Shown: in pieces, positions 16,401 to 64,000 of the stretch | Layout of the letters: each line of letters begins with the position of its first letter | Numbering within the stretch: position 1 is the first letter of the stretch | Assembly (NCBI GenBank): GCA_008632985.1 | Contig: QPGO01000039.1 | Location: 186,001-250,000 of the forward strand | Direction: 5' to 3' | From: Psammoneis japonica | Taxonomy: Eukaryota | Length of the DNA: 64,000 nucleotides | Notes under the pieces: generated by a model | Told to the model about the DNA's origin: nothing | The model's database searches: none | What the model saw: only the letters and a program-made list of their open reading frames with translations | Position numbers and translations under genes: made by a program

Positions 16401-16429
16401 TGTGGCCAATCACACCTAGAATCGACACC

Positions 16430-17169: not shown

Positions 17170-18570
17170 AGAACAATCAGGCAGGTGCGCTGCTTGACAG
17201 GGCAGTTTCTGATGTTGCACTCTTTGGGGTTGGCAGAGGGCTGGGTGTTTGGTGCTTGGTGTGGGACTTGGGGCACTGGGGAGGGGGTCAGAGTTGCAGA
17301 GTTCACTGGCGCATTGGCTCCGGTGACGTTGGGCTGGAAGCAGTGGGAGCAGCTGTCACATGGGCAGAAAGTGACAATGAAATTTGTGGACTGCCAGTTG
17401 TCGGTGCAGCTGAGGGTTGCTCCACCATGATTGCAGTTTCGCCATCACGGCACAATGCACAACAGCGATGAACAATGGCGACGCAGTCCGCTTGCAATTC
17501 TTTTAGCATCACAACATGACAAACATCTGCAGGTGCCACACCGGTGAAGTTGTTTGTGGACAGGTGCAGAGAGAGAAGCTTTTGGCAATCACCAAGTGCG
17601 TTTGGCATGTTTCTGGTGAACTGGTTGAACTCAAGGTCAAGAAAATTCAGATTCTTCAAGTTTCCCATCTCCAATGGAAGAGGGCCTCCAAGTCCACCAA
17701 ATTGCTCAGTTCTCCAATGTCATCAGGCAGCACACCAGCAAATTGATCATTTTGGAAGATGAGATTCCTCAATTCAACAAGATTCTTCAACGAGGTCAGA
17801 AATGGACTGCTCAAGGAGTTTGAACTGAGATCAATGTCAGTCAAATGAACAAGCAGTGCAAGATCACTCGGAATGACTCCCATGATGAGGTTGTTTTGCA
17901 GGTCCTGTCAAAGTGACTGCCGCTTGGTCTTTGGCGCATGCATCAAGCTCCAAAAGATCACATTTGATGCCATGACTGACATTCATCCTCTTGCGTGAGC
18001 CAATTTGATGCTTGGGCCCAGCCTTTGCCATTTGAAGCAAACTAAAATGTGGCAAGAGCATGTCATTGTACGATCATCCATTGGTCTTCCACAACCAAAG
18101 GGCTGAGCTCCAACCCATCTTGATTGGCCAGCCACTGCATGGCAAGCAACTCTGGACTCCATGGATCAGCAGAAGTGGCACTGCCCATGAAGCTTGTGGT
18201 GGACAGGAATGCTTCCATGTTGCTCTCACCTTCAGAAGTTTCTGACGGAGTCAAAAGAGGAGTTGGATGGACAGCCAGTCTGGGAGTTGGTGGTGGTGTG
18301 GGTTTTGGCATTTCAGCATCTTCTCTGCAGATGGACTGATGAGCAATTGGGGTCTGCACAGGCAGAGCAATGGTTGCAAAAATCTTGACTGCTCTGGCTG
18401 TTGATGTCTCCGGCATCAACCCATTCACTTCCGACAGCCAAAGTGCAGCTCAATCCACAACATGTGCCATCCAATGTGATGTCTGGCTTGTCACAGTCCA
18501 AGAGACCAATCAAGGCAAACCTTCCTCCTGGACAAAGAAAGTCGAGGCAAAGCTTGTTTCCTCCTGACAT
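17170..18570 (-). pseudogene. Leucine-rich-repeat protein pseudogene
   Basis: SPELLAMQWLANQD pre-LRR motif; plant-type LRRs GVIPSDLALLVHLTDIDLSSNSL, LKNLNFLDLEFNQF, LLSLHLSTNNFTG; several frameshifts. Confidence 0.8.
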
Positions 18571-19324
18571 GGCAAGTCACCAGTCCAGCAGCACGACAGG
18601 TGCTGGAACACCGTTTGATCTCCACAGATGTTTGGGGGCAGATCCAAGTGCCACTCCAAAACTGCATCTTGTGGTGTGTTTGAGTTGCGTGGAACAAAAC
18701 AAAGAGTGCAGATCTTCATTGGTGTTGACGTCTGCCCCCCATGGCAAGATGAACAAGGCTGGCAATCATCATGATTGCTTTTGCATTGCATGTTGGTCCG
18801 ATCTGTTGATTGTTTCATTTTTGCTCTTCAACCTGCAACACAAAAGAGCAAACAGCCGCACACATGATTTCAAGTTGTGTCACGTCATTCTTTCATGACC
18901 AAGAGGTTGTGGAAGCAGACTCATCAATTGCCCTTGATTCCACAAACCAGAGAGGCTGTTTGCAGTTGTCAAATCAAAAATTGCCTTCAATGCATGCTCC
19001 TTCCACCGGATTCAGTTTCACATCCTTTTCCTGCTGCCCATTGCTGAGTGATGTTTGTGGCAAATTTCATCATGTGTGGTGGGCTCACATCCTTTTCTTT
19101 TCCTGCCCATCTCTCAGGAGTGTGTGGTTGATGTGGACATGGCAGATTTTATCATGTGTTTGCATGATGCCCCTGCTCTCCTTTACCCAATGTTCCATGG
19201 GTGCTGCAGGTGCAGTCACAAAGCTTGGCACTGACTGGCTCAACTGAGTGCAGCACATGGCAGTTGCTGTGTTGTCCTTGTGTGCCACCGAATTTAACAT
19301 GTGGGGGAGAGCTGTTTCTTCCAG

Positions 19325-19636
19325 TGAGCAAATTGGTGCGTGTGACTGCTGATCTCTGCCATCCTCAGCTGCTTTGTTGGCAAGCCTGCATGAACTTGTG
19401 CTCAGATGAGTCCAATAAAGCCAAGCTGTGAGCCTCAAAGATGGCCATTGAAAGTGCTCCAACTGAGAGCTGCCTGTTTCTCTTCTGGTGGGCAAATTGG
19501 TGCATGTGTGGCTGCCAGTCTCTTCTGCCATTGTCAGCTGCTCTGTCAGCAGGCCTGCCCAAACTCATCCACAGATCAGACAAAAAAAGCTGAGTTGTGA
19601 GTCTCAAAGATGGTCACCAAAAGTGCTCTAACTGAC
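19325..19636. repeat. Diverged ~165-bp tandem duplication
   Basis: GCAAATTGGTGC...CTCAAAGATGG..AAAGTGCTC.AACTGA occurs twice. Confidence 0.6.
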
Positions 19637-20829
19637 ATGATTGCTGAGCAAACTCTTGGAGCACATTTGCCCACAAAGCACGACTCCTGCACTCCTGCGG
19701 CCAGACTCACATTTCTTTCCTTCTTGAGGCAGGTGCATGGCAGCCACCCACATGCTGGGGAGGCATGGCACAGTGGGCCAATTGTGGGCCAGCACCATCA
19801 CAGAGCTTTTTGATGTGGCCAAACAATTGCCTTGAGAGAGTGCCCACTTTTGGCTTTGCTCATGTCAGAGGGTGGGTGGAATGCACTCTCCTCCTGCAGC
19901 TCAACAAACTCACAAGAAACAATTCGCTCAAATTTTCCCTCAATCTTTTTGCCACAAAGCCCTCTGCAATTTTTTCCAATTTTGCCACCCTTGCCTTGGC
20001 TGCTCTCCCCACACTGGCCATGTCTCATCTTGGCTGACTTTGTTGCGCAGCTCTCAGGAGCTGTTGTTTTCTCATGTGATGTGAGAAAACGAGAGCAGCA
20101 GGCTGATTTGTGGAGCTCATCTCTCAGCACCTTGGACATGCTCCACCTCAATGTGAACATTTCAAGAATGCCTGCAGTGAGGCTCACACCAACGGTGACT
20201 TTGTTGCCAAGGTTGCTGACATGGACTCCTTGTGATCTCCAAAGTTGTTGCTTGCTGCTGCACTCAAAAAACCATTGTGCACAGCTCAAGAGAGGAGGCA
20301 CACTTGCTTCTTTTTTTCACAGCACACACTGGGCCTCAGAATGACACCCATCATGCGCCACTCTTGAAAAACCAAACCAGAGATTTTTGTGCCACGATGC
20401 ATGACTCCAAAGAACGTTGTTTTCACACCAAAGGCATGCAGCAGTTCCAATGACACATCCAACAACCGACAACACGACAGGCAAAAGATTTTGCAAAAAA
20501 TCAAAATCGCGATCTTTGCACGCTTCAGACAGTAATGAATCTACATGCGTGGATTTGTTACCGACTCCCACGTGTAATATTATATATTCAGCAATTAATT
20601 ATTTTCAATCATGACAGCTGTCTTGCATCATCCAACTGACACGACGGCAACGCGCGCTGACACAAAAATTCCTGAGAACAAAAAATTCTCACACAACCGT
20701 GGCATTGCCTCTGACAGAACAATAAGAATTTGTCATTGACTCTTTGTCATACCACGTTGTTACTACATTATTTGTTCGAAAAGGCTTGTTGTCACAACTT
20801 ACAAGGATCAAGAGAGAAAGAGTCGAAAC

Positions 20830-22809: not shown

Positions 22810-23693
22810 ATGCCGACCAACGCCATCCACCGAAACTGTGAGTAACATCATGTTGATTGTGTTGTTGCTGTTGTTTCTCTTGAATCCATTCGTCGAGTTG
22901 CGCTCTACGTGGAGAGCGTGTAGAAAAGATACCGTCGTACTTGAGTGCTGTAGAATCAACGACTACTTTCCAACTGGATGAAGTGTTTGCGAACACCCGA
23001 ACTCTAAATCGTTTCTGATTGGGCGAGACGTGCTCGTCTTCCGATTCTCGACCAATCAGAGAGCTCAGATTGATTTTGCGGTTATTGTCCGTTAGTTTTT
23101 CGAATCTCTCTGAAGAATTTTCTTTTGCTTTTGCTCATGATTCAGACCGCAAAACCTTCAAGACTCCCCGTCGCCCATACGAGAAGGAACGTCTCGATGC
23201 CGAGCTCAGGCTCGTTGGCGAGTACGGCTTGAGGTGCAAGCGTGAAATCTGGCGTGTTCAGTTTGCTCTTGCCAAGTTGCGAAAGGCTGCCCGTACTCTC
23301 CTCACGCTCGACCCCAAGGACCCCAAGCGCATCTTTGAGGGTGCCGCTCTCCTGAGGCGCATGTCTCGTTACGGTCTCTTGGCCGACGACGAGCTGGAAC
23401 TGGATTTCGTCCTCCAGCTCACCACCCAAAAGCTCTTGGAACGCCGTTTGCAGACCAAGGTGTTCAAGCAAGGCCTTGCCAAGTCGATTCACCACGCTCG
23501 TGTGTTGATTCGGCAGCGCCACATTCGTGTGGGCAACCAGCTCGTGAACGTGCCCTCGTTCAATGTGCGTACCTCGAGTGAAAAGCACATTGACTTTTCG
23601 GCCAACAGCCCCTATGGACAAGGTGCTCCTGGACGTGTCGCCAAGAAGCGTGCTGCTTCCAGGGCGGCCGAAGGAGGTGACGATGAGGAGTAA
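22810..23693 (+). CDS. RPS9: 40S ribosomal protein S9 (uS4); exons 22810-22837 and 23146-23693
   Basis: [30 protein letters not shown]...[27 protein letters not shown]...TTCAG intron restores the frame. Confidence 0.97.
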
Positions 23694-36349: not shown

Positions 36350-36603
36350 CGTGCTTTTGTGATTGGAGAAGATGCGGGATCGGCTCATGGCGTCGCTCGT
36401 CGCGCTCGCAAGATTTCAAGATCTTTTTTTTTTTCAGGGCTGAGGCTGGATACGCATTTTATTGCACCTTCAGCTCTGAATACAATTTACCTTATGCATG
36501 AAGGAGTGCACGTCATCAGCAGGGAATGTAGCTCACCAATTGCCCCGTTTCGACAACTTGCGACGACCACAAAAAATTTTGTGATCTGCCTCTTCCGTTG
36601 ACC

Positions 36604-37818
36604 ATGGCGTGTTCTCTTTTTCTTTTTTGCGCAATCCTGGTATTCCCTGACTCAACAACTGCAGCAACAACTGTTTCCTTTATAATGCAACAAACTACAA
36701 GACCTCTCCCGCTGCTGCATGCAACAAGTCTGCCCATTTTGAAAAACGACAACATTGCACAACAACCGCCTGCTCCTCTGACCAATCAAGTTCCACTCAA
36801 AAAGATTCAAGATGAAGAGCTCTGTGATGACAGTCTGTCTCCCTTTCGAGTGGATGTGATTGCTCATCATGGAGCCTCTGGTGTGAGTCCCGATCATGCG
36901 TTGGCGAGTTGGCGAGAAGCCTTTTTGGCGGGCGCCGACTGGATTGAAGTTGATGTGCAGTGCACCAAGGATGGAGTGCTTGTCATTAAGTTGGACCATC
37001 GGCTTTTTTTTTGCACATCTTTTCCGGGTTTTTCTGCATTTTTGACGGGTCATGACAGAAAACAACACGACAAAAGCATGAGCAACAATGATGATGTTCG
37101 CGACGAGCGGTGAGTTGCAAAGTGTCACCTCACGAGGGATGCTCACTGGTTTTGTTGTCGTGATGTGGTGCAGATTGATTTGTGTGCTTTCATCCCTCGT
37201 GCTGCTAGGCCAATTTTGAGAGACAGCGCAATGGCCATCATCGTTGTGCTTCGATCGCGGTGCCTGATGTTGTCGTTTTCAAGGGCGATCGAACAGCTCT
37301 TGTGTTTAAAATTGACAAACACAAATTAACATGTTTAAACACAGTGCCAATTTTAGGACAAACGCTGAAAAAATGGGTCGGCGGTCCCCCTCAATCACAA
37401 TGTCAACTTGGGAGAAACAACCGACATTGCCGACTGGGCATGGGCAGCACCGCTTCGTTGTCAAACCAAGGCCGTGCCGTGTCAGGACGGAGATCCATCC
37501 ACCGTGGAGGGGTGGGTTGTCAAGGATTTGTTGTCAGAGGAAGTCAAGCAATTGCGTGTCAAGGAGAAGAGCAAGTGTTGACCACAAGATTGCAATTTAA
37601 TGTGCGATGTTCCAACACTGGCCAAAACTGCCAACTTTGTGCAAGACATGGTGGACAGTGAACAACGATTGCATCGCACAAACAGTGTGACCAAGTCCAA
37701 GTGGCTTCAAGAATGCAATCAGCACATGTGTCAAAGTGCAGATGTTGCCGACCAAGTCCTTGAGTTGGGCTGCACATTGAAACAAAGTGCCCAGCTTGGT
37801 GTTGATCTCTTGGTTTGC
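36604..37818 (+). pseudogene. GDPD copy A (3'-truncated, interrupted)
   Basis: Colinear with 45607-46410; HRG changed to HHG; 401-bp insertion at 36990; TpA lost from ~36900 onward. Confidence 0.9.
36990..37390. mobile_element. Non-autonomous DNA element inserted at TTAA
   Basis: Empty site GTCATTAATCAC in copy B; flanks TTAA / TCAA; imperfect TIR GTTGGACCATCGGC / GTCGGCGGTCCCCC. Confidence 0.75.
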
Positions 37819-39413
37819 AATCATTTGGTGCACAATGCATTGACAGGCAGAAGCTGCTGGCTTTGCAGAAGGCTTGGTGGACAGCAAATGATCGCATCTC
37901 ACAAGTGGCACAGCCAAGCCCCAGCAGCTTCAAGAAAAGTTGACCATGCTGTCATCATTTTGCTGTGCCACCCATGCCAATGCTGGCCAGAGCAGACCTG
38001 CCATGTTCCACAGCACCCAAAAGCATGGCAGGGGGATCCCCAGCGGGTGCAGTCCAGTGCATCATCGCAAAGCAGCACATGTCACAATGCAGCTGCAAGT
38101 TAAAACAGCAGCCAGCTGGGTGCTTGCCACACAGCAAGAGAAGTCGCTGTGCTTCAAAAAATGGACAAAGCCAGCTGTGCCACACCCAGAGCTGCAAAAA
38201 AGTCATGGAAAGCCAGCCAAGTGTGCAGCTGTCTCTGAAAAAAACACAACACATGAACAGGGAGAGAACAACCTTCCTGGAACAGAAGATGGAAGACAAG
38301 GGTTGGCAAAAAATGCCATCATGCACAGAGAGTTGCACTGTGGGAAGCTGTGCTGAAGCTGGGGCAATGAAGTGTCAAAATGGTCAGTCAATGAAGCCTT
38401 GAAATGTTCAGTCAATGAAGCCTTGAAATGTTCAGTTGAAAGCTTTTCAAGGTCTTGCATCAGAGTGCCAGATGATGTCCTTTTGAAGTTTGAAAGTTTG
38501 CTGCAAGATGGAGACTCAGAACTAGAAAGCTGGCAAGAACAATGTGCAAAGTGACAAAACATGAACAACCATGGCCATCTCAACAACATGCCAAAATGCA
38601 CAGAGTTGCACTTGAAATTTGTGCTGCTGAAGACTGGTGCAAAAATGAGCTGAAATTGTGCAGAGTTTGACATAGAAAATGCGCTGCAGTCTGGGTTGAA
38701 AATGCAAAGGGAGTTGGCATCACAGTGGGGCCAAAACTCCCAAACACTGGCACAGCAAAGTGTCCACCCCAAAACACTTGGTCTTTTGCAAGTCAAAGAG
38801 TGAGCATGAAAATTGATGTGAGAGAAGATGACATGTGCCTCAAGCAGGTTTCTCTGGTTGTTTGATTTAACTGAGTGTCCATCAGCACAAGCACCACCAT
38901 CAGAGGGCAAAATGCACTGCCCCTGTTGATGGCATTGTCAGCTTCCCTCTACTTGGCCAACCTGCCACCATTGGATGAGGCTGTCAGCTGAGACAGAAGA
39001 AACAAACAGCCAATGGAGAGGATGTGCAGCTTGCAGGAGCCACACACAACCAAATGTGCCTTGTCTTTGCCTTTCATTGCATTGATTGTGTGTCAGTGCT
39101 GAGTCTGCTCTTCCACACTGACAGTGCACAGTGGTGAGACAGGGCCACAATTTCCAAACAGAAAGAAGAATCTTCTTGGGCTGATCCATCTTGGAGATGA
39201 GTTCTCCTGGGCCTGGGTAGCAAGATGTCACCAGGACCAAGAGCTCCGGCTCAAAAAGCCATGCGCTGTCAACGGAAACTGCCACCAACTTGTGACGACA
39301 CAAATGCTACGCTGTCCAAGGCGTTGAGCTCTACCCTCTTGATTACTGAAGGTGCAGGATAAGGTCAAGTGGCACCAATCGACTCCTTATAATTTAGTGC
39401 GTGGCGTGTGGTA

Positions 39414-41201: not shown

Positions 41202-41598
41202 GACGGGTTCCAGTCCCAGGCGGGACTCTGTGTGACATTGGGCCCGCAGAATTCTACGTGCGAGCTCCGCAGCAAATTTGCACTGCAATGAAAATGTGAA
41301 TGATCGCCAACAGAAAAAGAGGCAATTTTACGAACGCATCTCCTCCTTCACACTTGGAGCACATCGTTGACAGTTTGCCCGGGTGCATTCTTCAGACATC
41401 AAAGAACACACCCAGCGCATTTTCATTCTCACAAATGTTGAAAATGGAAAGCCTTTGGCTTCGCAAAACAGGGAGCATGAGACAATTTCGCAGAATTTCA
41501 CACGTAGAAATGCATGTGCGCGACATGCGACGCGATCCAAAAAACTGTTGATGTCACAGTGCAGCAGTGCGAGGTCCCACCTGGAGCTGGAACGCGTC
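41202..41598 (+). mobile_element. MITE family A copy 3
   Basis: TIR as copy 1; TSD TTTG/TTTG. Confidence 0.9.
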
Positions 41599-44570: not shown

Positions 44571-44960
44571 GACACGTTCCAGGTCTGGGTGGGGCCTCGT
44601 GCTGCTGAACTGTGACATCGACAGTTTTTTGAGTCTCGTCGCATGTCGCGCACGCAGATTTCTACGTGATTTTTTCGACATTTTGTGTCATTTTACGGTG
44701 CACTCATTGAGCAATCCGTCCAACAACTTTTGACATTTTTTGTTACAGCGCGATTCTACAATGTCTCAAGAATCGCGCAGGGCAGGCGAAGTTGCAAAAA
44801 CATCGAGTGGCAAGAGGCACAATTGCACCACAAACTTGGGCGTTTGTTTGATGTTGAAGATGAATGTGTCCATTCATTAAATTCTCGTACTACGGAGCTC
44901 GCACGTAGAATTCTACGGGCCCAATGTCACACGGAGTCCCACCTGGGGCTGGAACGCGTC
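44571..44960 (-). mobile_element. MITE family A copy 4
   Basis: Closely similar to 12575-12966; TSD TGTC/TGTC. Confidence 0.9.
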
Positions 44961-45606
44961 TGTCAGAACAGGCACGCACTCCATTTTGTGCCACTGTCTG
45001 CGAACGACGTGACGACAGGTCGGTCATCGAAGGCTCCGCACAAAAAGAGCGTAGAATCCCATGGAGAGATTGTGATTTCCTGGCACGTCAGAAGAAAAAA
45101 ATCGGCCATGACAACACGCCGTCGACAATTTCATCACAACGCAAGTGGGGCCGTCGAGCGCCCACACCTGAAACGTGTGCTGCAATGCCAACTCAATGAG
45201 ATTCCCATGGTCGGCGCTCGACGGCCCCACTTGCATTGCAGCGCATTTCGACCATCATTGTCGTCGTGCTTCGCCGTGGTGAAACACCCAAAATCGGTGC
45301 ACAAAACAGAAAGGAACCCGGCAGAAATCGCCCAAAACCCGGAAGTGTGTCCGTGAAAATCACGTCATTTTGCTAAATAAAAAAGTTTCTTAATTATTGT
45401 AAATGTTGATTTTCTACTGTCCTGCCTCTCTAGTAGTAGCAGTGTACTGTATCTGAGCCTGTGGATCAGCGATGCCTGTATTTTTTGGATATCCGTACTT
45501 GCATGCAGTAAAATTAATGTATGATAGACTGCACGTCAGCAATGTCGCCCACCAATTGCCCCGTTTCGACAACTTATTTTGCGCGACGACGACTAGACTC
45601 TCGACC

Positions 45607-46941
45607 ATGGCGTGTTCTCTTTTTCTTCTTTGCGCAATCCTGGTAATCCCTGACTCAACAACTGCAGCAACAACTGTTTCCTTTATACTACAACAAACTA
45701 CAAGACCTCTCCCGCTGCTGCATGCAAAAAGTCCGCCCATTTTGAAATACGACAACATTGCACAACAACCGCCTGCTCCTCTGACGAATCAAGTTCCACT
45801 TCAAAAGATTCAAGACGAAGAACTCTGTGACGACAGCCTCTCTCCCGTTCGAGTGGATGTGATTGCTCATCGTGGTGCGTCTGGTGTCAGTCCCGATCAT
45901 ACGCTGGCGAGTTATCGAGAAGCCTTTTTGGCCGGCGCCGATTGGATTGAAATTGACGTGCAGTGTACCAAGGACGGAGTGCTTGTCATTAATCACAATG
46001 TCGACTTGGGAGAAACAACCGACGTTGCCGATTGGGCGTGGGCAGCACCGCTTCGTCGTCGAACCAAGGCCGTGCCGTGTCGGGACGGAGATCCGTCCAC
46101 CGTGGAGGGGTGGGTTGTCAAGGACTTGTTGCTCGAGGAAGTCAAACAATTGCGTGTCAAGGAAAAGAGCGAGTGTCGACCACAAGATTACAACTTGATG
46201 TATGACATTCCGACATTAGCCGAGACGGCTAATTTTGTGCAAGACATGGTGGACAGTGAACGATCGCATCTCGCAAACAGTGTGACCAAGTCCAAGTGGC
46301 TTCAAGAACGAAATCGCTATGTATTAAAGTACGGACGGTGCCGACCGAATCCACGAGTTGGGCTGTACATTGAAACAAAGCGTCCAGCGTGGTATCGATC
46401 TCTTGGTTTGCCACTCGAAGAGAAATTAGCAGACGTTATTGACAATAGCAAGTTTGAAGGACCAGTAATTGTACAAAGCTTTGAAGAAGACAGCCTCCGT
46501 CGTATGCAAGAGCTAAAACCAGACTGGAGAACAGTCAAGCTCATGACAAAGCATGATGCTGACAGTATCATGAGCAACAATGGAGATTTAGACAAGTTTA
46601 TGCAAGGCCTGATATCCTGGGGTTGTGATGGGATTGGACCCGACAAGTCCTCTATCATTCCAGAAGCAACGTTTCCTCCGAATAGCTCTCCCTTGATTGA
46701 GGCGGCACATGCACACGGTCTCTTTGTTCACCCCTATACCTTCAAGAGCGACACGTTGCATCTACACAGAGTCTATGGTGGCAATGCAGGCCAAGAATTT
46801 GCGCAATTTTTCAAACTTGGGATTGATGGCGCCTTTGCGGATTTTCCCGACCACGCGGTGTTTGCAAGAGAGCTGTACAATCGTTTGCAGATTCGAGGAG
46901 ACGGTTTTTTGCTGTTTTCCGACGTGAAGGGACAGTTTTAG
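45607..46941 (+). CDS. Glycerophosphodiester phosphodiesterase (GDPD), secreted type; intact copy B
   Basis: Signal peptide, VIAHRGASG, GADWIEIDVQCTKDGVLVINH, LYIETK, VQSF, VHPYT, GIDGAFADFPD. Confidence 0.93.
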   Translation: MACSLFLLCAILVIPDSTTAATTVSFILQQTTRPLPLLHAKSPPILKYDNIAQQPPAPLTNQVPLQKIQDEELCDDSLSPVRVDVIAHRGASGVSPDHTLASYREAFLAGADWIEIDVQCTKDGVLVINHNVDLGETTDVADWAWAAPLRRRTKAVPCRDGDPSTVEGWVVKDLLLEEVKQLRVKEKSECRPQDYNLMYDIPTLAETANFVQDMVDSERSHLANSVTKSKWLQERNRYVLKYGRCRPNPRVGLYIETKRPAWYRSLGLPLEEKLADVIDNSKFEGPVIVQSFEEDSLRRMQELKPDWRTVKLMTKHDADSIMSNNGDLDKFMQGLISWGCDGIGPDKSSIIPEATFPPNSSPLIEAAHAHGLFVHPYTFKSDTLHLHRVYGGNAGQEFAQFFKLGIDGAFADFPDHAVFARELYNRLQIRGDGFLLFSDVKGQF

Positions 46942-47879
46942 CTCATCATGAGAAGCATATGGCATAACCGGGCTTGAGATTCAAAGCGTGCCGCCGGATG
47001 CACCCTCAAAACGATATGGCCACGTCCTCGATTCAAAGAAAATATTGCTTGTAGCTCTACAGAAGCACGGAGAAGTTCAGGGGATGTAATGAGCACTTCG
47101 ATGCCAAAGCAAATCAGGGACGAGTTTGTACGACCCTTTATTCTTTTTTTACACAGGTGGCGACCTTGTCTAGTAGGCAAAGTACTTGTGCCGTAATTTT
47201 GTAGAAGTTTGCTACTGCTTTGTAAAATAGTCCGATATTATCCAATCAGTTCGATAGGGATGTGGCAGAGAGAAAGGAGAGATTTAAGCGCGTGACTTCA
47301 ATGCCGACCGAGGGCTCTGGGCTGTTGTTGCGACGCTGGAAAGATGGGATATTATTTGTCGACATCTCTTAAAGGCAGGTTCTGTCTTCTACCCCTTTCT
47401 TATGGGGCATGAATACATAACTAGCTAGCAGTTGTCTTTTGTAAGAAGTTCTAGAGTTTCAGCTAGTAGTGCGTGGTGTCTTCCCATGATGAAAGCTATT
47501 CCCCCCCCCTCCCCCCGACTCTTCCAGAGGAGGGCCAACAAATCCTGCGAGAGTGGGTAGGGTCAAGTCATCCTCATTAGCCCTACCGGTACAAGACTCT
47601 GTCAAAACTCATGAGTCACAGTATATCTGCGCACCTTTCAACTTCTAAACGGATCTCTAGATTATCAATCTTCTAAAATGGATGGACTCTTTCTTTAATT
47701 TTGGCTTGAATCATGTAAATCATCACAGCAGTCGCAAATCATACCTCAAAACCGACAGTACGAGCTATTTCGAGCTCCGGGTGTGCCTTTCTATCTGGAG
47801 CCAGTCTTACGTTTTTGTGCGTCCTTTTTGGAGGGCCCATCAGGAACCTCGGTGGGCCCATCAGGAATGCCAACCAATG

Positions 47880-48935
47880 CCTGGTTACAGACGTACTCCG
47901 GTGCATGGCAAGACCCCTGACTGGGAGGATCGAACGGTGAGCAGCCTTTTTTTGACAGGAGGCAATCGACACTGTCAAGCTTGAGACACTTGCGCCACTT
48001 GACATTGCTGCTGTAGAGAAGACAGAATTCGCATCCTGCGCTACCTCGAATGGTGCAACTGTCCAATCCCAATGGGCAATGAGAAGTGCCCACATCAGCA
48101 TGAGTGGAAATGCCGCAGCCGCCTCCTTCATTGTCAGCTCCTGTGCTGCTTTTGACATCAAGAATGAAATCCGTAAACTTGGCATGGTGCCCCCCCCAAA
48201 ACAAGAAAGTAAGTGCCACCGGCTGGGTGGGGGAACCCATCCTTTCTGGCAGAAAATGACAGCATGCTCTTCAAACCATCGCCGCCATCATCGTCCATCG
48301 CGATCAAATTGCCGAGCCAATCGCACAAACCAATCACAGTGTCGTCGATGTCAGATGGATTTGTGTCGATGAAGGGAGATTTTTCACGGCCTCTTTCGAT
48401 GTCAGATGGATTTGTGTCGATGCAGAGAGAGGTTTCACGGCCTGTCAATTCAAACTTGAACAAAAGGACCTCATTGGGAAGCAGATTTCCACAGTGACGA
48501 AGTCCGGTGCTGGTCACGAAGCCAAAATGATGCTCGATTGGCGGCAGCAGCCCAGTGTCGGCATGAACCGTAATTTCGTAACAGCCGCGTTTACCGGCTC
48601 CTTTGACCTCAAAGTTGCAGTCATAAAACTTGGTTCCATGCGCTCCCACCGCAAGGTGGCAAGTGCCAGCCGGAGGGACTGGTCCATCGGAGCCCGTGCA
48701 GGAATCATCATCTCCATCATAAATGTCTTCACCGGAGCCAACACCAAACGACAGTGTGCTCCACACACCGATGCCGCCATCGTCATCCACCACAAGCAAA
48801 TCACCATCTGAATTGTGCAGAGCAATCACAGTGTCTTCCACATTGTCGGCACCATCCAAGATGACAAAGTGGTGTTCTTCCATTGCAATGTCAAGATGCG
48901 TTTCCCTGCCTGTCAAACAAAACCCAAACCAATGC
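47880..48935 (-). pseudogene. PPC/DVUA0089-like repeat protein, copy 1 (5' part replaced by copia fragment)
   Basis: Paralog of 63005-64000; frameshift, 51-bp in-frame duplication at ~48345-48445; TpA loss increases toward 48935. Confidence 0.8.
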
Positions 48936-50520: not shown

Positions 50521-51982
50521 TGCAACACAGTGATTGACTGTGACCCTTTTTCACAGTGATTGTCACTCCTGTTTTAGACACAATTTGCAAGGTTTCAAAC
50601 CTCATTGGTTGTGCATGCCTCAAGACAATGGACTCAACTTGTGAAACACAGGCTGACCTCACCCAAAAATCATCAATCCTCATCAACTCCAAATCATCCA
50701 GAGACATCTCCACATCCTCGTTCTTGAGGTTCGCCATCAGAGAGGGCAACGAGAACCATGGAAAAAAGCTTGAGAAATGGGCCAACACATGCCTCTTGAT
50801 TCATTCCCAGCTTGGTTGACATGAGCATGTCTGGACAGGCTGCAAACAAAATGTCCTTGGACAGCTCATCTTGAAAATCCCCACATGCTCGTGCGCACCT
50901 GGTGGTGTTCCGCTTTTTCCACTTGAGGTTGCTTTCTTGGAGGAGGTGGCTGACTGTGCAGGAGATTTTGGGTGTGTTCTCTCTGGCACCTTCTTGAAAA
51001 TGCCATCGTTGACAGCATTTTTTTCTGTCAAGATTGGCAACAACAGCAGATGTTGCACTGCTCTTGGGATGTCACTTTCCTTCGGCCCAGTGTCGCCAGG
51101 CACTGACACAAAATGACCAAATGGTTCTTGCTGATTTCCTTTGCATCATCTCTCATCCACTCTTGAGTTGTTCAAAAGGGTGAAAGAATCTCACCCCACA
51201 CTGGATCATCAGCAATTTCTCCTCCTCGCTGAGCTCAATGAAATGGCTCAACCACATTGATGCCATTTTTCAAAGGTTTTGCAGACAAAGCAACAGCGGA
51301 TGAGACACAGCCATTTGGCAAAGTGTCCAATCTGCACAATGAGGGAAACTTGGGCAGCCTCTTGTCATTGTCCAGGTGTCTGTCCATCCACCTTCTCCAG
51401 CGTGCCGCTGTTGCACGGTGACTCCTCCAAGAGCACGGCCGCCCACAAGCTTGTCCTCTTCTCGCGCTTGGCCTGACATCTTGGCATGACCAGGCCAGAG
51501 ATTGGCACCATCCTGCTGGATGCCCCCTCCTCCCCAACAAGAAGGCCAGCTTGTTGATTTAAAGAAAATGTTGCTTGTGGCTCGGCAGAAGCCTGGGGGC
51601 AAGTTCGGGGGATTTGACAAGCACTTTGATGCCAAAGCAAATGAGGGGTGAGTTTGTGTGGCTCTTTTTTTTTTTACACAAATGGCAACCTTTACCAGGC
51701 AAAGCACTTGTGCCATGTTTTGCAGAAGTTCACTGCTCTCTGGTCAATTTGGACATCGAGGATGCTTGCGCTTGTCAGTTGCCACCTGGTGTGGCCAGCT
51801 GATGCTTTGCAAAACAGTCCGATCTCATTTTCAGTCAGATTCAAGCACACAATTTCAATGCAGACCAAGGACTCTGGGCTGTTGTTACAACACTGGAAAG
51901 ATGGGATGTTGTTTGATGACATCTCTTCAAGGCAGGTTCTGTCTTCTGCCACTTTTTTCTGGGGCATGAATGCACAACTGGC

Positions 51983-52405
51983 GACGCGTTTCCAGACCTG
52001 CTAAGTACAGCAGGTGGGAATTCGTGTCACATTGGGCCCGTAGAATTCTACGTGCGAGCTCCGCAGTAAAATTATTAGGTAATCGAAAATGTCAATGATG
52101 TCGCCAACAGAAAATGAGGCAATTTTGCGAAAGCACAAACTCGTCCATGATTGAAGTACATCATTTTTTACTTACCCAGTTACATTCTTCAGACATTGAA
52201 GAATGTAACTGGCGCATTATTGTTTCTATAAACTCGTTATATAAAACGTCTGGGGCTTCGCAAAACAGCGAGTCTAGACATTTTTTTGTAATATTTCACG
52301 TAGAAATGTACGTGCGAAACATACGACGGATGACAAAAATTATTTATGTCAAACGTCGAGCTCCCGCCCACCTACTGTATGTATTTCACAGGGCTGGAAC
52401 GCGTC
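51983..52405 (+). mobile_element. MITE family A-related copy 5 (TpA-rich, apparently young subfamily)
   Basis: GACGCGTTTCCAG...CTGGAACGCGTC; TSD TGGC/TGGC; absent from the paralogous site at ~47421. Confidence 0.9.
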
Positions 52406-52939
52406 TGGCAGTTGGTTTTTTGCAAGAAGTTCTAGAGTTTCAGCCAGTGCGTGGTGTCTTCCCATGATGAAAATTAGCTCTAGTGCCCCCCCCACCCCCC
52501 ACCCCCGACTCTTTAAGAAGAGAGCCAACAAAATCCTGCGAGGGCAGGTGGGGTCTCTAGAAGTCATCATCAGTTCTGCAAAACTCTGCGTCAAAACTCA
52601 TGAGTTGGTGCACCATTCATCTTCTAAACGGATCTCTAGATTGTCAATCTTCCCAGTGGATCTGTGCAACATCAATCTTCTAAAATGGATGGACTCTTTC
52701 TCTCTGATGTTGGCTTGAATCATGTGAATCATCACAGCGGTCGCAAATTCCGCACCACAGCTCAAAATCGACCGTGCGAGCTGTTTCGAGCTCCGGGTGT
52801 TGCTGCATCTGGCCAGTCTTTTTCTTTTGTGCGTCCTCGGTGGGCCTTTCAGTCTTTTTTTGTTGTGCGTCCTCGGTGGGCCTTTCAGTCTTTTTTTGTT
52901 TTTGGATCCTTGGTGGGCCCATCAGGACTGTCAACCAAT

Positions 52940-57000: not shown

Positions 57001-58154
57001 TGACATGAGTGAATCATAAAAAAATCTGCAGAACCATTTTGGAGACATTTTTGCTTTTGTGCAATCGTGCAGCATGTCACGAGCTCTTTTTCTGAATTTT
57101 GGTCTCAACTTCACGATCGGTGTTCCATGCATTGAAGCGCAGACAGAACCCTGAAACCATTGTTTCCTCATCCACCTTCACGCATTTTGCACTTGGTCCA
57201 CAAAAGTCAGACCCATCCACCCGGTTTGAAAAATCTCTCTCCGTTTGCTCCTCCTTTCGCCGACCAACAAGGTCCCATTTTTTCAAAATTCCAAAAAACA
57301 AGTTGAAATTCCAGGCCCTGATCGGCACACAACACTTGGTTGACACACACCTGACTGCAAGACGCCTCTCCAGGTCCCTCCCCGTGAGGCAAAACACTTG
57401 GCCGGCCGCGCCATGAGAGCGCAGCCGGTCCATCCAGGGTGCAGTTTTGCTGGCTTTTCCAAACCTCTGTTTCACTCAAGACTGAGTGTTGAGATGGCAC
57501 AGTCCTGATGGTGCACAGAGTGCATTCATGGAACAACACATGCTCAAATCACAGGCTTTTCCCACCACTCGGCAACAGGGCATTGTCCACTGCTGCTCAA
57601 ACCGCGCAAATTTTGCACCACAATTTTTTCAAAACAACATGTGCTGCTGTCACAGCCATTGTGCAGCATGCCATTTGAGCCCCATTTTGTCAAAATGCCA
57701 CCTCATGTGAGACTGGCAATTGCTCAAATGTGCACTTTGAGTCCAAAATGATGGGTGCTCATGCGAAACTGCAGTGCAGCACTGGCGCCTGCTGCACTCA
57801 GCCCCACACTCCCCTCATCATGACATTGCACACTTGGGGCACAACAGTTGTTCCGTGTGTGTCAGAGAGAGGGCACACACCATGACTGCAGGTGCAGCTG
57901 CACAGGTGTGCATGACCAGCAAGCGGAGTTTGCGCACACTGACAATGCGCAGTGATTGTGCGCAGTGCCATGAACAGTGCTGCACAGGTTGTGGTGTGTA
58001 GAGTTGGCGCAATGGAAATGAAGTGCTCTTGGAAGTCCTGGGCAACAGCGACATTTCTTGATCACAGAACATTGTTTTTTTCTTTTCTCAACAACATGTG
58101 TTCATGTGTCACACCAGAGCTCCTTGCGACAGTCATCATTTTCATGGATGCATG

Positions 58155-58270
58155 TTTGAGCAATTGCTCAAACTTGCAGAAGTTTGAGCAATCTCACAAG
58201 TTTGAGCAACTGCTCAAAGTTGCCAAGTTTGAGCAAATGTCAATGCAAGCAAAAGCAATTGCTCAAACTG
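58155..58270. repeat. Cluster of TTTGAGCAA motifs in both orientations
   Basis: Four TTTGAGCAA and three TGCTCAAA copies within ~115 bp. Confidence 0.7.
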
Positions 58271-59832
58271 TTGCTGGCAAAATCCAAGACTGAAACACCA
58301 CTCAGCCATGATCGTCAAACATTCTTGCTTGAGAAGGCATCCACTCATGTCCACTGCAAACACGTGCTTGTGCACATTTGAGCATTTTTCCCACATGGCA
58401 CTGTGGCAGCATGCAGCTTTGCAAGCTCTTCTGCAATCTCTTTTTCATTCAAGACTGAGTGACGAGCACTTCATGAAGTGTTGTGCATGCTCCAAATGCC
58501 CCATGTGTTGATGCCAGCAGTGCTTGTCTTGTTGCAAGCACATCCTCACAAGCAGTGCAAGAGCCACACAAGGAGAGCCACCTTCTCTCTCTCCTTGTCA
58601 GCATGCTCTGCTGCTGCAAATCTTTAGAGAACTGCAAAAGCAGCGTGCAGCTGGCTGCTCAATGAGTTGGTTTGCAGTTTTTTCTCCTTTTTTGTCAACC
58701 AGCAAAATGCCATTCACACAAACAAGTGCCACAACTCTCTTTTGTTCTTTGCCTTGGTGATCTGCCCAATCATGCCTCAACCTCTCAAGCCTGCAGCCAA
58801 GTGTCCCATTTCATGGCTTTGGTGCATCCAAAAGGTGCTCTGAGAGAGTTTGGCAAAATGTTGGCTTTTTTGGCATGCACTTTGAGCCCGCCATCTTCTC
58901 AGAGTGTCTTGAAACCTTTGCCCTCACTTTCTCAAGATGGCACTCAAATGATTGTCATCAGGTCATCTGCAAGCATGCCTGGTGTAAAAGACAAACCTCA
59001 GAACAGGTGTGTCTCACACTTTTTCTGGAAAAAAATTGGAGTGCAAAGCTTCCAGGATTCCATGTTGAGTCAGACACAGCAGCAACCCAGGTTCACATCA
59101 AACAAGGTTGGCCGCTGAAGACCAACACATTCTAGATCCACACAGAGTCTGTGTGGTTGCAGTGCAAGAAAAAAGCTCGGGCAACTCTTTGAGCACCTTT
59201 TTTTGCACCAATTTTTTCCCTGAAAACTGCGTGCAATGATTTGCAGATTTGTGGAGAGGGTTTTTGTTGTTTTGGCTCAAAAGAGCCTTTTGCCAGCACC
59301 AGGCTTGAGATTGACAGCATCACTCCATTGGGTGCATGGTGCACCCACAAAATGATGAGGCTGCTTTCTTGATGATTCAAAGAAAATGTTGCTTGTGGCT
59401 CTGCCGAAGCACGGAGAAGCTCAGGGAGATTGACGATCACACTTTGACGCCAAAGCCAACCAGGGACGAATTTGAACCACCCGTTTCTTTTTTGCACAAG
59501 TTGTGACCTTGTGCCACTTGAACTTGGGCATCAAGGATGCCCGCACTTTCCCCTGCTCCAATGACTTGCAACAGCTGCTCTCGACACGGGAGCTTCACAA
59601 ACACCACCGCCCAGGCACGAGAGTCTGGCCTCAGAAGGCAAAGCCTGCAGAAAACATCTTGGGACACGCAAATTGGTGCCATGGCAGCAAAATGAGAAGA
59701 ATCTGGAACATCAATTTTGTGAATGAATCACACAGCAGTTGCCACTCGAGGTGGCGTGCGTTTTGCTTGTTGCATCAAATCTCTGCAACAATCGCCCCCT
59801 CATTTGAATTGAATTGTTCAATCTTCATTGCC

Positions 59833-62211
59833 GTCAGTCTATCTCCCATTCAAGCAGCTGTGGTTGCTCATCGTGGGTGCCTCTGGCACAACACACGTTG
59901 GTTCAAAGCCCCGATTCCCGATCGTGCGTTGGCGAATTGGCAAGTTGTTGAGAAGCCTTTTTGGCCGGTGCCCATTGGATTGAAATTGATGTGCAGTGCA
60001 CCAAGGACGGAGTGCTTGTCATTGATCACAATGCCGACTTGGGAGAAACGACCGACATTGCCGTTTGGGCATGGGCGGCACCGCTTTGTTGTCGAACCAA
60101 GGCCATGCCATGTCGGGACGAAGATCCATCCACCGTGGAGAGGTGGGTTGTCAAGGACTTGTTGCTCGAGGAAGCAAAGCAATTGCATGTCAAGGAGAAG
60201 AGCGAGTGTCGACCACAAGATTGCAATTCAATGCACGACATTCCAACACCAGCGGAAACAGCTGACTTTGTACAAGACATGGTGGACAGTGAATGATTGC
60301 ATCTCACAAACAGTGTGACCAAGTCCAAGTGGCTTCAAGAACGAAATCGGTGTGTGTCAAAGTGCGGACGTTGCCGACCGAATCCCCGAGTTGGACTGTG
60401 CATTGAAACAAAATGTCCAGCGTGGTGTTGATCTCTTGGTTTGCCACTCAAAGAGAAACTGGCAGACATTGTTGACAACAGCAAGATTGAAGGACCAGCA
60501 ATTGCACAGAGCTTTGAAGAAGACAGCCTCCGGCAGATGCAAGAGCTAAAGCCAGACTGGAAGACGGCAAGCTCATGACAAAGCATGATGCTGACAGTGC
60601 CACAAATTGCCAAACACTTGTCACTTTTCATGCACAAAGCACCTTCGATCGCCCTGAAGAGGAAAATTTCCTTTCGTTGGCTCGCTTGCACCAGGCCACG
60701 TAGAAAATTACAGTGCAGAGTCTTGCTGCTTTCCAACTCCTCCCTCCGACCACCAACAACAACACGCGGTGAAGCACGAGGATGTGTCCGACAATGGCGG
60801 TGCCCATTCTCATTGATTCTGCCAATTTTCACAACTCTCCTGTGTTTCAGTGCGCTCTCAATGGCGACAAAAGAGAGCTTTGTTGCTTGCATTGTTTCCG
60901 CTGGTGCTTTCACTCACATTTGTTCTCTGTCTGCACTGTTTTGACATCCTAGCTGGCGTGTCGTATGATGCTTGCTTTTGTTCAGCAGCATTGAGGCTCA
61001 ATTGATCTTTCATCAACCGAAGCTGGTGAATGTCGTTCGAATGTTGAATGTTTGGTGTTGCAGTGTGGACGTTCGAGGTGATGAGAGGGGGCCACAAATG
61101 GCTCGTGCAAGAGAGAAATGGAGCACTCAACTCGTCTCTCTCATGAGTGGGATCTTGAACCGGGTGATGCAGTCCATTGAGCGAAAGTGTGTGTGACAGA
61201 CATGCTAGAAGGAAGAGTTGCATGTCACTGATGGAGACATTGAATGCATTGCATGCAGTGCAAACATCAAAAACACTCTCTCTGCATCGGCAGAGCAAGT
61301 GACTCGCTGTCGGCTCTCAATGACACAGCGCGAAGAAGACAGCAGAAATTTCAATTTAGCTTTACAGGCAATGGATCTAGGAACAAAGGCAGCATTGTTG
61401 AATGATTAAATGGAATGCTTGTCATTGACAGGCGTTTGAGTTTCGGCGCAGTTGTGTTCACCACGCCAAACATTGTCGTCTTGTTTTGCAGTGCTGTTCA
61501 GTGTCCTGTATCCTGCAACTCCTTGCTGTCAACATTGTGCTAAAGGTGTCAATAATTCCTGTGAACAAATGCTGTCATTTCCATTCTTTTATTAGAGAGG
61601 GAAAGTTGTCGCAAACTGCCGACGGTGTTCCCCGCATTGTCGCGTGTTGTTTTGCGAGAAGCGCGGGTGAAACGTCGGAGGGAGTTTCTGTACATAGAAT
61701 TCTGCGTGGCCTGTACAAACGAACAACGAATGGAAAATTTCCTCTTCAGAGCGATCGAACGCGCTCTGCGTGCGAAGAGTGACAAGTGTTTAGCAATGCT
61801 GCTAGAGGTAGTTTCCCTAACCAATAATAAATTTGTAGCATCATGAGTGACAATGGAGATTTGGACAAGTTTATGCAAGGCCTGACATCCTGGGGTTGTG
61901 ATGGGATTGGACCCGACAAGTCCTCTGTTGTTCCAAAAGCGACGTTTCCTCCGAACAGCTCTCCCTTGATTGAGGCGGCACATGCTCACGGTCTCTTTGT
62001 TCACCCCTATACCTTCAAGAGCGACACGTTGCATCTACACCGAGTCTATGGTGGCAATACAGGCCAAGAATTTGCGCAATTCTTCAAGCTTGGGATTGGT
62101 GCCTTTGCGGATTTTCCCGACCACGCGGTGTTTGCAAGGGAGCTGTACAATCGTTTGCAGATTCGAGGAGATGGTTTTTTGTTGTTTTCCGACGTGAAGG
62201 GACAGTTTTAG
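59833..62211 (+). pseudogene. GDPD copy C, split by a 1.24-kb DNA element; 5' half hypermutated, 3' half nearly intact
   Basis: 59833-60599 aligns to ~45835-46567 with stops; 61839-62211 aligns to ~46566-46941 with an open frame. Confidence 0.92.
60600..61838. mobile_element. Non-autonomous DNA transposon with ~120-bp imperfect TIRs, inserted at TA (Tc1/mariner-like target)
   Basis: Empty site GACAGTATCATG in copy B; ends C(C/T)ACAAATT / AATTTGTAG; 60607-60720 is the inverted match of 61687-61797; TSD now reads TG (left) and CA (right). Confidence 0.85.
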
Positions 62212-63004
62212 TTCATCATCAGGAGCATTCGGCAGTAGCGGGCTAGAGATTGACAGCATGGCGCCGGATGCACCCCCAAAACGATAAGGCCACTTTGTCG
62301 ATGGATTCAAAGAAATCATTAGTACTTGTAGCTCTACGGAAGCACGAAGAAGTTCAGGGGATTTAACGAGCACTTCGATACCCAAGCAAACCAGGGACGA
62401 ATTTTTTGCGGCCTTTTCTTTTTTGACACAAGCGGCGAACTTGTCAAAGCAAAGTACTTGCGCTATAATATTGTAGAAGTTTGGTTACCCTCGTTTCAAA
62501 TTGCATATCGAGGATGCTTGCACTTGTTAGTTACTACCTGGTATAGCTAGCTGACGCCTTGTAAAGGAGTCCGATTTTATTCAATCAGAACGATAGGGAC
62601 GTGGCAGAGAGAAAGGAGGGATTGAAGCGCGCGACTTCAATGCCGATAGAGGGCTCTGGGCTATTGTTGCGACGCTCTCTAAGCTAGAAAGATGGAATAG
62701 TTGACGATTCACATCTCTTCAAGGCAGGTTCTGTCTTCTATCCCGTTTTTCTGGGGCATTGAATACATAACTAGTGCCCTATTGATTTTCTAAACGAATC
62801 TATACATTATCAATCTTCTTAGTGAATGTGTGTACAGTACTATCAATCTTCTAAAACAATGGAGATGTGCACTATCAATCCTCTAAAATGGATGGACCCA
62901 AATTCCCTATTGGTTCGATGAAGATGGAACATTCCGGCATCTACGTCCAGGGGAAATTGTGCGTCCTCGGTGGGCCCATCATTGATGCCATTCAATGCTT
63001 ACGT

Positions 63005-64000
63005 TTAGTCACAGACCCACGCCGGTGCAAAGCAATAACTCCGAGTGGGAGTATCGTACGGTGGGTCGCAGCCTTTTTCGAACAGGATGTACTCGTCATC
63101 ATCAAGCTTGAGGCACCTAAGCCGCCTGGCACTACTTCTGGAGAGAACACAGTAATTGCATCCTGCGCTACCTCCACTGGTGCATTCATCCCAAGGGTCG
63201 CAAGTAGAGTCAGCAGAGATAGAAATATGGTAGTCGCCGCCAAGATCAGCTCCTGTGCTTTTGACATCAACAATGTAATCCGTAAAAGAGGCATGGTACT
63301 CCCCCAAAACAAGAAAGTAAGTGCCACCCAAATTGTCGACATCACCGTTCTTTTCGCCTGCGCCAAACGACAGCATGCTCTTTGTACCTTCGCCGCCATC
63401 ATCGTCCATCGCAATCAACTCGCCGAAAGGATTATACAAAGCAATCATAGTGTCGTCGATCTCAGACCAATAGGTGTCGATTTCGAGAAAGGTTTCAAAG
63501 GATGTCAAATAAATCGTGAAGAAAAGGACCTCATTAGGATCCAAATATCCTGAGTAATCCGATCCAATGCTGTTCACTCTGCCGAAATCATGCTCAATCG
63601 GCGGCAGCAGATTAGTGTCGGTATAGACCATAATGTGGTAGGTGCCGCCACTACCGGCTCCTTCGACTTCAAAGTTGTATTCATAAAAGGTGGTTCCATA
63701 CTCTCCCACCGCAAGGTAGTAAGCGCCAGCCGGAGGGACCGGTCCGTCGGAACCCGCGTAGGACTCCGGTCCATAAATGCCTTCACCGGAGCCAACGCCA
63801 AACGACAGTGTGCTCATCAAACCGCCTCCACATCGTCGTCCTCCGCAAGCAAATAACCATCTGAATCATACAGAGCAAGAAAAGTGTCGAAATCATGGTC
63901 AGCCTCGGTTGTAATGTCAAGATACGTTTCCTCGCCTGTCAAATATAACCCATACCAATGCACCTCGTTTGGCCTTAGAGAATCCTCATAGCTAAACCCG
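63005..64000 (-). CDS. Protein with at least two PPC/DVUA0089-like beta domains and a Cys-rich C-terminus (5' end outside window)
   Basis: DTFLALYDSDGYLLAEDDD and DTMIALYNPFGELIAMDDDGGEG...GTYFLVL repeats; six-Cys tail; one 1-nt frame break near 63832; normal TpA content. Confidence 0.75.

Follow-up and report, generated by a model that had tools for sequence, protein, structure and literature searches.

A 64,000-bp window of Psammoneis japonica DNA (assembly GCA_008632985.1, contig QPGO01000039.1, positions 186,001 to 250,000 of the forward strand; all coordinates below are those of the window) carries paralogous copies of a GDPD gene, one of which, copy C, is split by a transposon at 60600-61838. 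We show here that this DNA has been altered by a context-specific transition process that worked in place on the DNA of the genome, affecting both strands alike, independent of homology and accumulating over time, and that the borders of the affected domains cut through genes and transposons. With a confidence somewhat better than even, we favor a model where the region around the transposon (59.8-62.0 kb) represents the right margin of a kilobase-scale TpA-mutation domain that is defined by position, most likely as silent CpG-methylated DNA, and within which the process acted in place, repeatedly and regardless of the presence of other copies.

TpA-depleted domains and the margin in copy C

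To call depleted and normal segments we used a two-state hidden Markov model (HMM) on TA/(TA+TG+CA) across the window, which returned six TpA-depleted segments of 2.6-11.1 kb each, covering about 60% of its length:

1408-12534: TpA-depleted segment
12928-20530: TpA-depleted segment
36698-39305: TpA-depleted segment
40853-44875: TpA-depleted segment
47902-51999: TpA-depleted segment
52642-61352: TpA-depleted segment and the domain whose right margin is studied here, with TA at 37 of 1854 pyrimidine-purine (YR) steps and a CG observed/expected ratio (o/e) of 0.51 (two-state HMM and 500-bp table)

The TA share of TA+TG+CA steps is 0.015-0.031 in these segments versus 0.22-0.30 elsewhere. Pooled over depleted (38,170 bp) and normal DNA (23,764 bp), TA o/e is 0.07 versus 0.61, CG o/e 0.48 versus 0.97, TG o/e 1.74 versus 1.19 and CA o/e 1.66 versus 1.13, with a G+C content of 0.502 versus 0.470. 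The ratio (TG-CA)/(TG+CA) stays mostly within +/-0.2 along the depleted domains, and this balance between TG and CA indicates that both strands are affected alike; strand-biased mutation, whether coupled to transcription or to replication, was dropped for the same reason. When 13 borders are pooled, the TA share rises from 0.011 to 0.291 between adjacent 100-bp bins, a sharpness that anchoring on the model borders exaggerates.

The TAs that survive in depleted DNA differ strongly by context: ATAT, GTAT/ATAC and CTAT remain at 1-2% of their normal share, TTAC/GTAA at 15-28% and TTAA at 39-46%. This four-base hierarchy suggests that the mutator prefers A or G before the TA and T or C after it. 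From the context survival ratios we built a dose scale, fitted by region, on which 1 is the mean of the depleted domains. The gene copies, the transposon and the successive parts of the margin are as follows:

45374-47894, plus strand: copy B unit, a TA-normal island between depleted domains; reference state
59829-60598 and 61839-62812, plus strand: copy C, split by the element insertion
36477-36989 and 37393-37818, plus strand: copy A, as aligned to copy B
51482-51982/52405-52748: GDPD 3' remnant (unit E), by alignment
59118-59512: GDPD 3' remnant, by alignment
59829-60597, plus strand: left part of copy C, saturated (alignment to B; Pfam GDPD match at 59952-60293)
59949-59951, plus strand: a CGA codon of B that reads as in-frame TGA in copy C, a CpG-to-TpG change (sequence, alignment and ORF bounds)
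60294-60296, plus strand: another CGA codon of B that is an in-frame TGA in copy C (sequence, alignment and ORF bounds)
60598-60599: left copy of the probable target duplication, reading TG today versus TA at B's empty site
60600-61352: left ~750 bp of the element, strongly TpA-depleted with five TAs left; dose 0.56 (60600-61000) and 1.16 (61001-61352)
61353-61838: right ~490 bp of the element including its right terminal inverted repeat (TIR), 18-19 TAs kept; dose 0.115 (0-0.30)
61839-61840: right copy of the probable target duplication, now CA; original context G-TA-T, the most mutable class
61841-61957, plus strand: shoulder of copy C, 4/5 TAs and 0/3 CGs changed; dose 0.62 (0.20-1.72)
61958-62211, plus strand: unmutated end of the copy C frame, 0/6 TAs changed; dose <0.10

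Copy B provides the reference (ancestral) state for counting changes in copies C and A, to which it is 84-89% identical over >1.3 kb; the GDPD paralogues of the window are spaced 14-25 kb apart. Its open reading frame (ORF) is intact (489 aa, 45472-46941) and encodes a full GDPD domain (E=3.7e-36), and TA occupies 113 of the 474 YR steps of the unit, corresponding to a dose of 0.00 (0-0.04). The first-pass annotation, made from the sequence alone, had described this copy as untouched and copy C as saturated left of the element, and both descriptions stand. Between 59938 and 60598, 18 of the 20 TAs of copy B have become TG (11) or CA (7) in copy C, one has become GA and one is kept, and 21 of the 45 CGs have become TG or CA. 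Right of the element we find exactly the four TA changes already named there (TTAG>TTGG at 61862-3, ATAT>ACAT at 61886-7, CTAT>CTGT at 61926-7 and ATAG>ACAG at 61956-7) among the five TAs of copy B in 61841-61960, and none of three CGs changed. In support of copy B as the reference, 9 of 10 GDPD homologues favour its Ile at one changed site. Between 61961 and 62211, up to the stop codon, 0/6 TAs and 2/15 CGs are changed, in line with the earlier observation that all TAs are kept from about 62000 on. The last changed TA thus lies at 61956-7 and the first kept one at 62008. Both the overall contrast (22/25 TAs changed versus 0/6; Fisher p=1.1e-4) and the local one right of the element (4/5 versus 0/6; Fisher p=0.015) are significant, as is that for CGs, changed at 21/45 sites left versus 2/18 right (p=0.009). 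Of the 29 TAs in the 3' flank beyond (62212-62780), where the alignment is poor, 15 are kept and four read TG or CA; four changes run in the reverse direction, and a directional excess is absent.

On the dose scale, the left part of copy C is at 0.91 (95% interval 0.55-1.44), and the stretch comprising the right duplication copy and 61841-61960, polarised by copy B, at 0.62 (0.20-1.72). The following stretch, 61961-62211, differs significantly from it (p=0.0007) and receives less than 0.10, since the most mutable contexts are represented among its six kept TAs (by two CTAT and one ATAC); beyond it the dose is 0. Purifying selection as the keeper of these TAs was considered and dropped: the unmutated end of the frame has lost a conserved Asp through a 3-bp deletion and carries Ala>Thr at a nearly invariant site, which together with 9 differences from copy B at 251 sites (61961-62211) indicates that the right end of copy C drifted freely while keeping its TAs. 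Likewise, selection cannot be what protects copy B, because its non-coding flank and synonymous sites keep a normal TA share, with a dose of 0.00.

The element itself records the same process. Copy B carries a single TA at the empty site and the flanks in copy C now read TG on the left and CA on the right, as the first-pass annotation had it, which points to a TA target-site duplication, both copies of which were later changed; such changes mark action in place. The TIRs (60606-60705 versus 61797-61700) are 82% alike over 100 bp, with TA in the right arm and CA in the left at three sites, including the two earlier cited as TAs lost on the left and kept on the right, and with the opposite at one site. 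Several CGs of the right TIR read CA in the left one, and the right tip has 35 extra bases. A DDE transposase was sought by Pfam in the element's five stop-free stretches of at least 110 aa and none was matched, so the element is non-autonomous. We compared word depth in a public sequencing run (0.79 of sampled words, contigs only, depth ~30-36; it may be the assembly's own source), where the element stands at 280-515 versus ~35 for unique DNA. It is thus a non-autonomous, multi-copy TIR element, for which a Tc1/mariner-Stowaway-like class was considered; its TIR pattern had 0 matches in metagenome contigs. An internally deleted, MITE-like (miniature inverted-repeat transposable element) relative exists elsewhere in the genome, represented by a public-run contig in which 60754 is followed by 61724 and 969 bases are skipped.

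Position, homology and the other edges

A second edge is found in copy A, where four of five TAs are kept at 36590-36700 and 13 of 13 have become TG or CA from 36897 on (p=0.0016). The TpA state therefore switches between 36697 and 36897, and the domain starts inside the gene. The first-pass annotation had placed comparable edges at about 36900 and 48050; the former agrees with this switch, and by composition the latter lies instead at about 47895-47900. A 404-bp insert that distinguishes copy A from copy B (36990-37392) is itself TpA-depleted, with a dose of 0.67, and has a CG o/e of 1.03.

A and C have 13 changed TA sites in common, and the outcome (TG or CA) is the same at eight of these and different at five, close to the 6.8 concordant sites expected if the changes were independent and at odds with the 13/13 that inherited changes would give. 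The five discordant outcomes imply that A and C were mutated independently, each where it is now located. In both copies, moreover, the mutated tract ends inside unbroken homology, at 61957/62008 in C and at 36697-36897 in A. Together with the unmutated state of copy B, non-coding flank included, these results bear out the earlier proposal that the process is positional and not triggered by homology, which we regard as well supported; doses ranging from 0 to 0.64 within a single MITE family (below) point the same way.

Two other origins of the edges had been foreseen in the first-pass annotation, and neither is borne out for copy C. Concerning an assembly join, the flanks of the element are colinear with copy B, and contigs of the public run match 57279-60171 and 62200-63761 exactly, none of those listed bridging the repeat between them. 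Concerning a recent conversion from copy B, no sign of one is seen, as divergence at sites other than TA and CG is alike on both sides of the element (31/656 left versus 13/372 right, p=0.42).

Chromatin, residence time and rival explanations

Five copies of one MITE family, with ends GACGCGTTCCAG... and 4-bp target duplications, lie in the window and differ widely in dose:

51983-52405: high-copy MITE inside depleted DNA, flanks TGGC/TGGC; dose 0.00 (computed on 51987-52409)
11507-11845: MITE copy, dose 0.56
41217-41556: MITE copy, dose 0.64
12575-12966: MITE copy, dose 0.23
44571-44960: MITE copy, dose 0.28

At 12575-12966 the two duplication copies read TTAG and TTGG (on the minus strand), a difference that implies one hit after insertion. 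We read the graded doses as suggesting that dose grows with residence time and that the process is long-running or episodic. The family of the undamaged copy at 51983-52405 has a word depth of ~35,000 versus ~35 for unique DNA, and its core had 0 matches in metagenome contigs. The flanks of this copy at 51979-51982 and 52406-52409 are TGGC/TGGC, and copy B, which lacks the element, has TAGCTAGC there, which looks like an excision footprint. Were the MITE to predate the duplication of B and E, its freshness would be unaccounted for.

Depletion of TpA and of CpG go together along the window: TA o/e and CG o/e are correlated (rho 0.79, p=6e-29; 128 windows, each of 500 bp), and CG o/e per segment is 0.36-0.70 in depleted DNA and 0.79-1.24 outside. 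CpG decay, taken as a proxy for past 5-methylcytosine (5mC), thus appears to track the domains. In unit E left of the MITE, 18 of 29 TAs have become TG or CA, two are kept and nine show other changes in a badly aligned stretch, and none of the 22 CGs survives. The CG sites altered in A and C alike (36877-37825 and 59905-60455 versus B 45880-46420) share the same outcome in 10 of 10 cases (p=0.001) against the independent outcomes at TAs, which suggests that CpG decay predates the split of A and C and that the loss of TpA came later. In the diatom Cyclotella cryptica, as far as the available passages of the report go, hypermethylated repeat blocks of up to 30 kb alternate with unmethylated gene-rich blocks of similar size, and methylation is mostly at CpG (PMC5124317). 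By analogy, the domains of the window may be diatom repeat blocks that are silent and methylated at CpG, and the border at 61957/62008 a chromatin border, and the earlier suggestion that the mutator follows a spreading chromatin domain is plausible.

These data would fit a mechanism where a DNA-level process acts in place and on both strands, turning TpA into TpG or CpA most efficiently in A/G-TA-T/C contexts, in domains where CpG also decays to TpG or CpA. The target would be set by the location of the DNA, most likely in silent CpG-methylated repeat chromatin alternating with unmethylated gene blocks, and not by likeness to another copy. Repeated action over a long time would leave each piece of DNA with a dose reflecting its position and residence time: at the margin about 0.9 in the gene, 0.6-1.2 in the left part of the transposon, at most 0.3 in its right part, about 0.6 over the next 120 bp and, within 51 bp, less than 0.1. 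As for chemistry, A>G at the A of TpA and T>C at its T are the same event on opposite strands, and for this reason deamination of the A, of the ADAT2 type, and a modification of the T that pairs with G appear to fit equally well. Oxidised thymine is an example of the latter. Editing of RNA or cDNA before integration was rejected, since the target duplication and the host-gene flank are changed and the DNA transposon only partly so.

Several observations weigh against a margin set by position and CpG methylation. The dose is non-monotonic through the element, at 0.115 in its right part (61353-61838) versus 0.62 in the stretch beyond (likelihood-ratio test, p=0.029, which depends on the model and on only 6 polarised sites): the right ~500 bp of the element keep 18-19 TAs, and the adjoining duplication and gene flank lost 5/6. 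On these grounds a single smooth gradient was abandoned, which corrects the gradient described in the first-pass annotation, and a second event or a second episode is needed. The dose model moreover applies TA frequencies of host DNA to a transposon, counts at the margin are small, and over 61841-62211 copy B represents the ancestor with no outgroup. Depleted DNA also contains undamaged MITEs, such that position alone does not guarantee mutation and time or activity must matter. The link between TpA and CpG, finally, loosens at margins. Right of the MITE at 51983-52405 (52410-52790), 10/15 TAs and 1/9 CGs are changed, and at 61841-61960 the counts are 4/5 and 0/3, for a total of 14/20 versus 1/12 (p=0.001); at 44922-45371, TA remains at 1 of 80 YR steps with a CG o/e of 1.16. 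At such margins, either the TpA process outreaches the methylated block by a few hundred bases, or it outpaces CpG decay, or methylation is not the guide. The stretch 44922-45371 lies directly upstream of the working copy B and has a very high word depth.

The non-monotonic profile can be read in three ways. A single shoulder of dose ~0.2-0.3 may span 61353-61960 (joint fit 0.21); under the dose of the element's right part or of such a shoulder, the right duplication copy, originally G-TA-T, would change with a probability of 0.43-0.73. Alternatively, mutation of the gene may have both preceded and followed the arrival of the element, against which counts that at a dose of 0.5-0.9 the context class of the target TA has a survival of only 2-11%; mutation first and insertion later was dropped as the whole answer on this ground. 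Thirdly, the right part of the element may have been overwritten from another copy, by cellular conversion or by assembly reads, which would place the switch exactly at the element's end.

The last possibility extends to a broader alternative that we consider unlikely, though likelier than the two that follow: the margin could be a repair breakpoint, copy C having been mutated throughout and its 3' end, the right part of the element or both having been overwritten later from an unmutated donor, by gene conversion or, in the assembly, by reads from other copies of the repeat. The switch from TA-rich to mutated DNA does fall exactly at the right end of the element (61838/61839), where homology to other copies stops, the element is multi-copy by its word depth, its right part has the lower dose, and no contig among those listed bridges 60171-62200; the undamaged MITE at 51983-52405, with its TGGC/TGGC flanks where copy B has TAGCTAGC, offers a parallel case. 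The outer edge at 61957/62008, however, bears no sign of recent conversion from copy B, from which the DNA to its right differs at 9/251 sites, with a 3-bp deletion and an Ala>Thr of its own. Of the TAs that survive in the element's right part, few are in the most mutable contexts (~2/19 by hand estimate versus a normal share of 0.33), such that a low dose fits better than a fresh copy, and at that dose a change of the duplication copy would retain a probability of 0.43-0.73. Conversion, finally, cannot explain the edge of copy A or the two edges of copy B.

We give still less credence to a mutator triggered by repeats or guided by RNA, in the manner of repeat-induced point mutation (RIP) or of small RNAs, that leaks over a few hundred bases and that copy B escapes through expression or selection. 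The depleted domains are indeed rich in repeats (a Copia-type reverse transcriptase (RT), RVT_1, MITEs and four decayed GDPD units), word depth reaches 373-1091 at 54.7-57.3 kb, and RNA guidance has been raised, in the available part of their preprint, by the authors who describe a similar signature in Bigelowiella natans (see below). Against such a trigger, copy B, although identical to A and C over long runs, keeps all classes of TA, synonymous and non-coding ones included; in neither A nor C do the limits of the tract coincide with those of the homology; one MITE family has both mutated and untouched copies; the main Bigelowiella target is described as single-copy; and the direction is the reverse of RIP, TpA being lost and not made.

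Modified bases cause transition-type miscalls on some sequencing platforms and TpA is under-represented in most genomes, but that the pattern is an artefact of base calling or polishing, or the product of selection acting against TpA in the long run, is highly improbable here, given that contigs built from 31-letter words of the public run (platform unrecorded, possibly the assembly's source) show 0 differences over 57279-60171 and 0-1 over four other depleted stretches, that the outcome at any one site is fixed as either TG or CA, that the mutated GDPD copies also bear stop codons and indels, that MITE copies show graded doses, and that selection cannot act on pseudogenes while sparing the working gene.

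Real transposon remnants in depleted DNA were identified by Pfam:

6977-8065: Copia-type RT
13264-13779: RVT_1

Among 196 ORF translations scanned, Pfam matches in depleted DNA comprise RVT_2, RVT_1, GDPD, LRR and ricin lectin and weak ones to COPI_assoc/EF-hand, and none of the 196 translations matches a virus family. Both strands together hold 179 stop-free stretches of at least 110 aa, almost none of which match Pfam; many long ones lie in depleted domains (for example 1408-20530) because TAA and TAG stop codons have been lost, and gene finders would over-call there. A gene for cytosolic ribosomal protein S9 (RPS9) at 23019-23690 has its best named relative in Chaetoceros tenuissimus, at 90% identity; a bolidophyte (85%) and brown algae (~84%) come next, and marine sequences reach up to 95%. 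The window is accordingly stramenopile, most likely diatom, and does not come from Bigelowiella. A protein-atlas search gave the GDPD family alone and no informative taxon. Right of the margin, an ORF at 63008-63865 on the minus strand has one weak relative (E=1e-8).

Tentatively, and at somewhat less than even confidence, we propose that diatoms, like Bigelowiella, run a chromatin-guided, homology-free genome defence that rewrites TpA to TpG or CpA, erases A/G-TA-T/C 20-40 times more completely than T-TA-A, acts in episodes and stops within one nucleosome length at its borders. If true, this would be a widespread counterpart of fungal RIP in algae of the stramenopile-alveolate-rhizarian (SAR) group, killing transposons and surplus gene copies and raising GC content. 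In the literature searched, a TpA-erasing mutator is described in only one report, a 2026 preprint on a rhizarian alga, and the window shows the signature in a new lineage (stramenopile, probably diatom) at far higher saturation; genetic tools, methylomes and histone maps are available for some diatoms. The margin amounts to a natural experiment with one intact paralogue and two independently mutated ones, whose tracts end inside the genes and run through a transposon and its target duplication; this shows in-place action on DNA and rules out a homology trigger like that of RIP. Borders resolved to ~50 bp (61957/62008) and ~200 bp (36697-36897) can be overlaid with methylation and histone maps, and as the link between TpA and CpG is tight in domain cores and loose at margins, guidance by 5mC chromatin is directly testable.

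Comparison with known systems

RIP changes C to T mainly at CpA and so creates TpA; it is premeiotic, needs a duplicated partner, hits both copies and depends on RID-type enzymes. Like the process seen here, it leaves dense, context-specific dinucleotide transitions in silenced repeats and duplicated genes, with dead paralogues and transposons as a result. Unlike in RIP, the window loses TpA (o/e 0.07) and gains CpA and TpG (1.66-1.74), copy B has a dose of 0.00, the mutated tract of copy C ends 250 bp before the stop codon and that of copy A starts inside homology. RIP is described as a process of ascomycetes in the available parts of the literature consulted (PMC7296669, PMC7882544).

The blocks of Cyclotella cryptica, with mostly CpG methylation, resemble the window in the sharp, kilobase-scale alternation of repeats and genes, but the available passages report no effect on TpA, and the decay of CpG alone cannot remove TpA (PMC5124317). 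A-to-I editing of the ADAR or ADAT type, from the partial sources consulted, shares the A>G change with T or U before the edited A. ADARs, however, act on double-stranded RNA, whereas in the window the target duplication of a DNA transposon and the flanking gene were changed in place.

For a signature that erases TpA, the literature search returned only the Bigelowiella preprint and no diatom report, subscription journals being largely outside its reach. According to the available text of that preprint, 230 of 231 mutations in two viral insertions of Bigelowiella natans mutation-accumulation lines are A>G/T>C, all of these on TpA; the mutations are seen in some lines only, and the large target, derived from a nucleocytoplasmic large DNA virus (NCLDV), is single-copy (bioRxiv 10.64898/2026.01.13.699255). 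The same source lists 124 TpA-poor, CpA+TpG-rich clusters in ~94 Mb, with a TpA rho of 0.45 in the NCLDV region, and a footprint that extends to transposon and host-like domains. Mettrop et al. 2026 propose an ADAT2-like adenine deaminase, citing ADAT2 homologues for which activity on DNA has been reported from two animals or protists, and raise RNA guidance as a possibility; the main text, so far as available, makes no mention of CpG, boundary or edge (bioRxiv 10.64898/2026.01.13.699255).

Within the limits of that text, the two systems differ in several respects. Bigelowiella natans is a rhizarian, whereas the RPS9 of the window is closest to diatoms. Saturation differs as well, with a TpA rho of 0.45 in the NCLDV region versus a TA o/e of 0.07 over about 60% of 64 kb, and so do the targets, integrated viral DNA in the one case and transposons and tandem paralogues of a host gene, with no viral family match, in the other. 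Changes of CpG to TpG or CpA are frequent in the window (21/45 in the left part of copy C), unlike in the Bigelowiella set of de novo mutations. In both, the changes are nearly only A>G/T>C, confined to TpA, found on both strands and limited to kilobase-scale regions, and in both the process is homology-independent, leaves clusters where TpA is scarce and CpA+TpG abundant, and is active in episodes.

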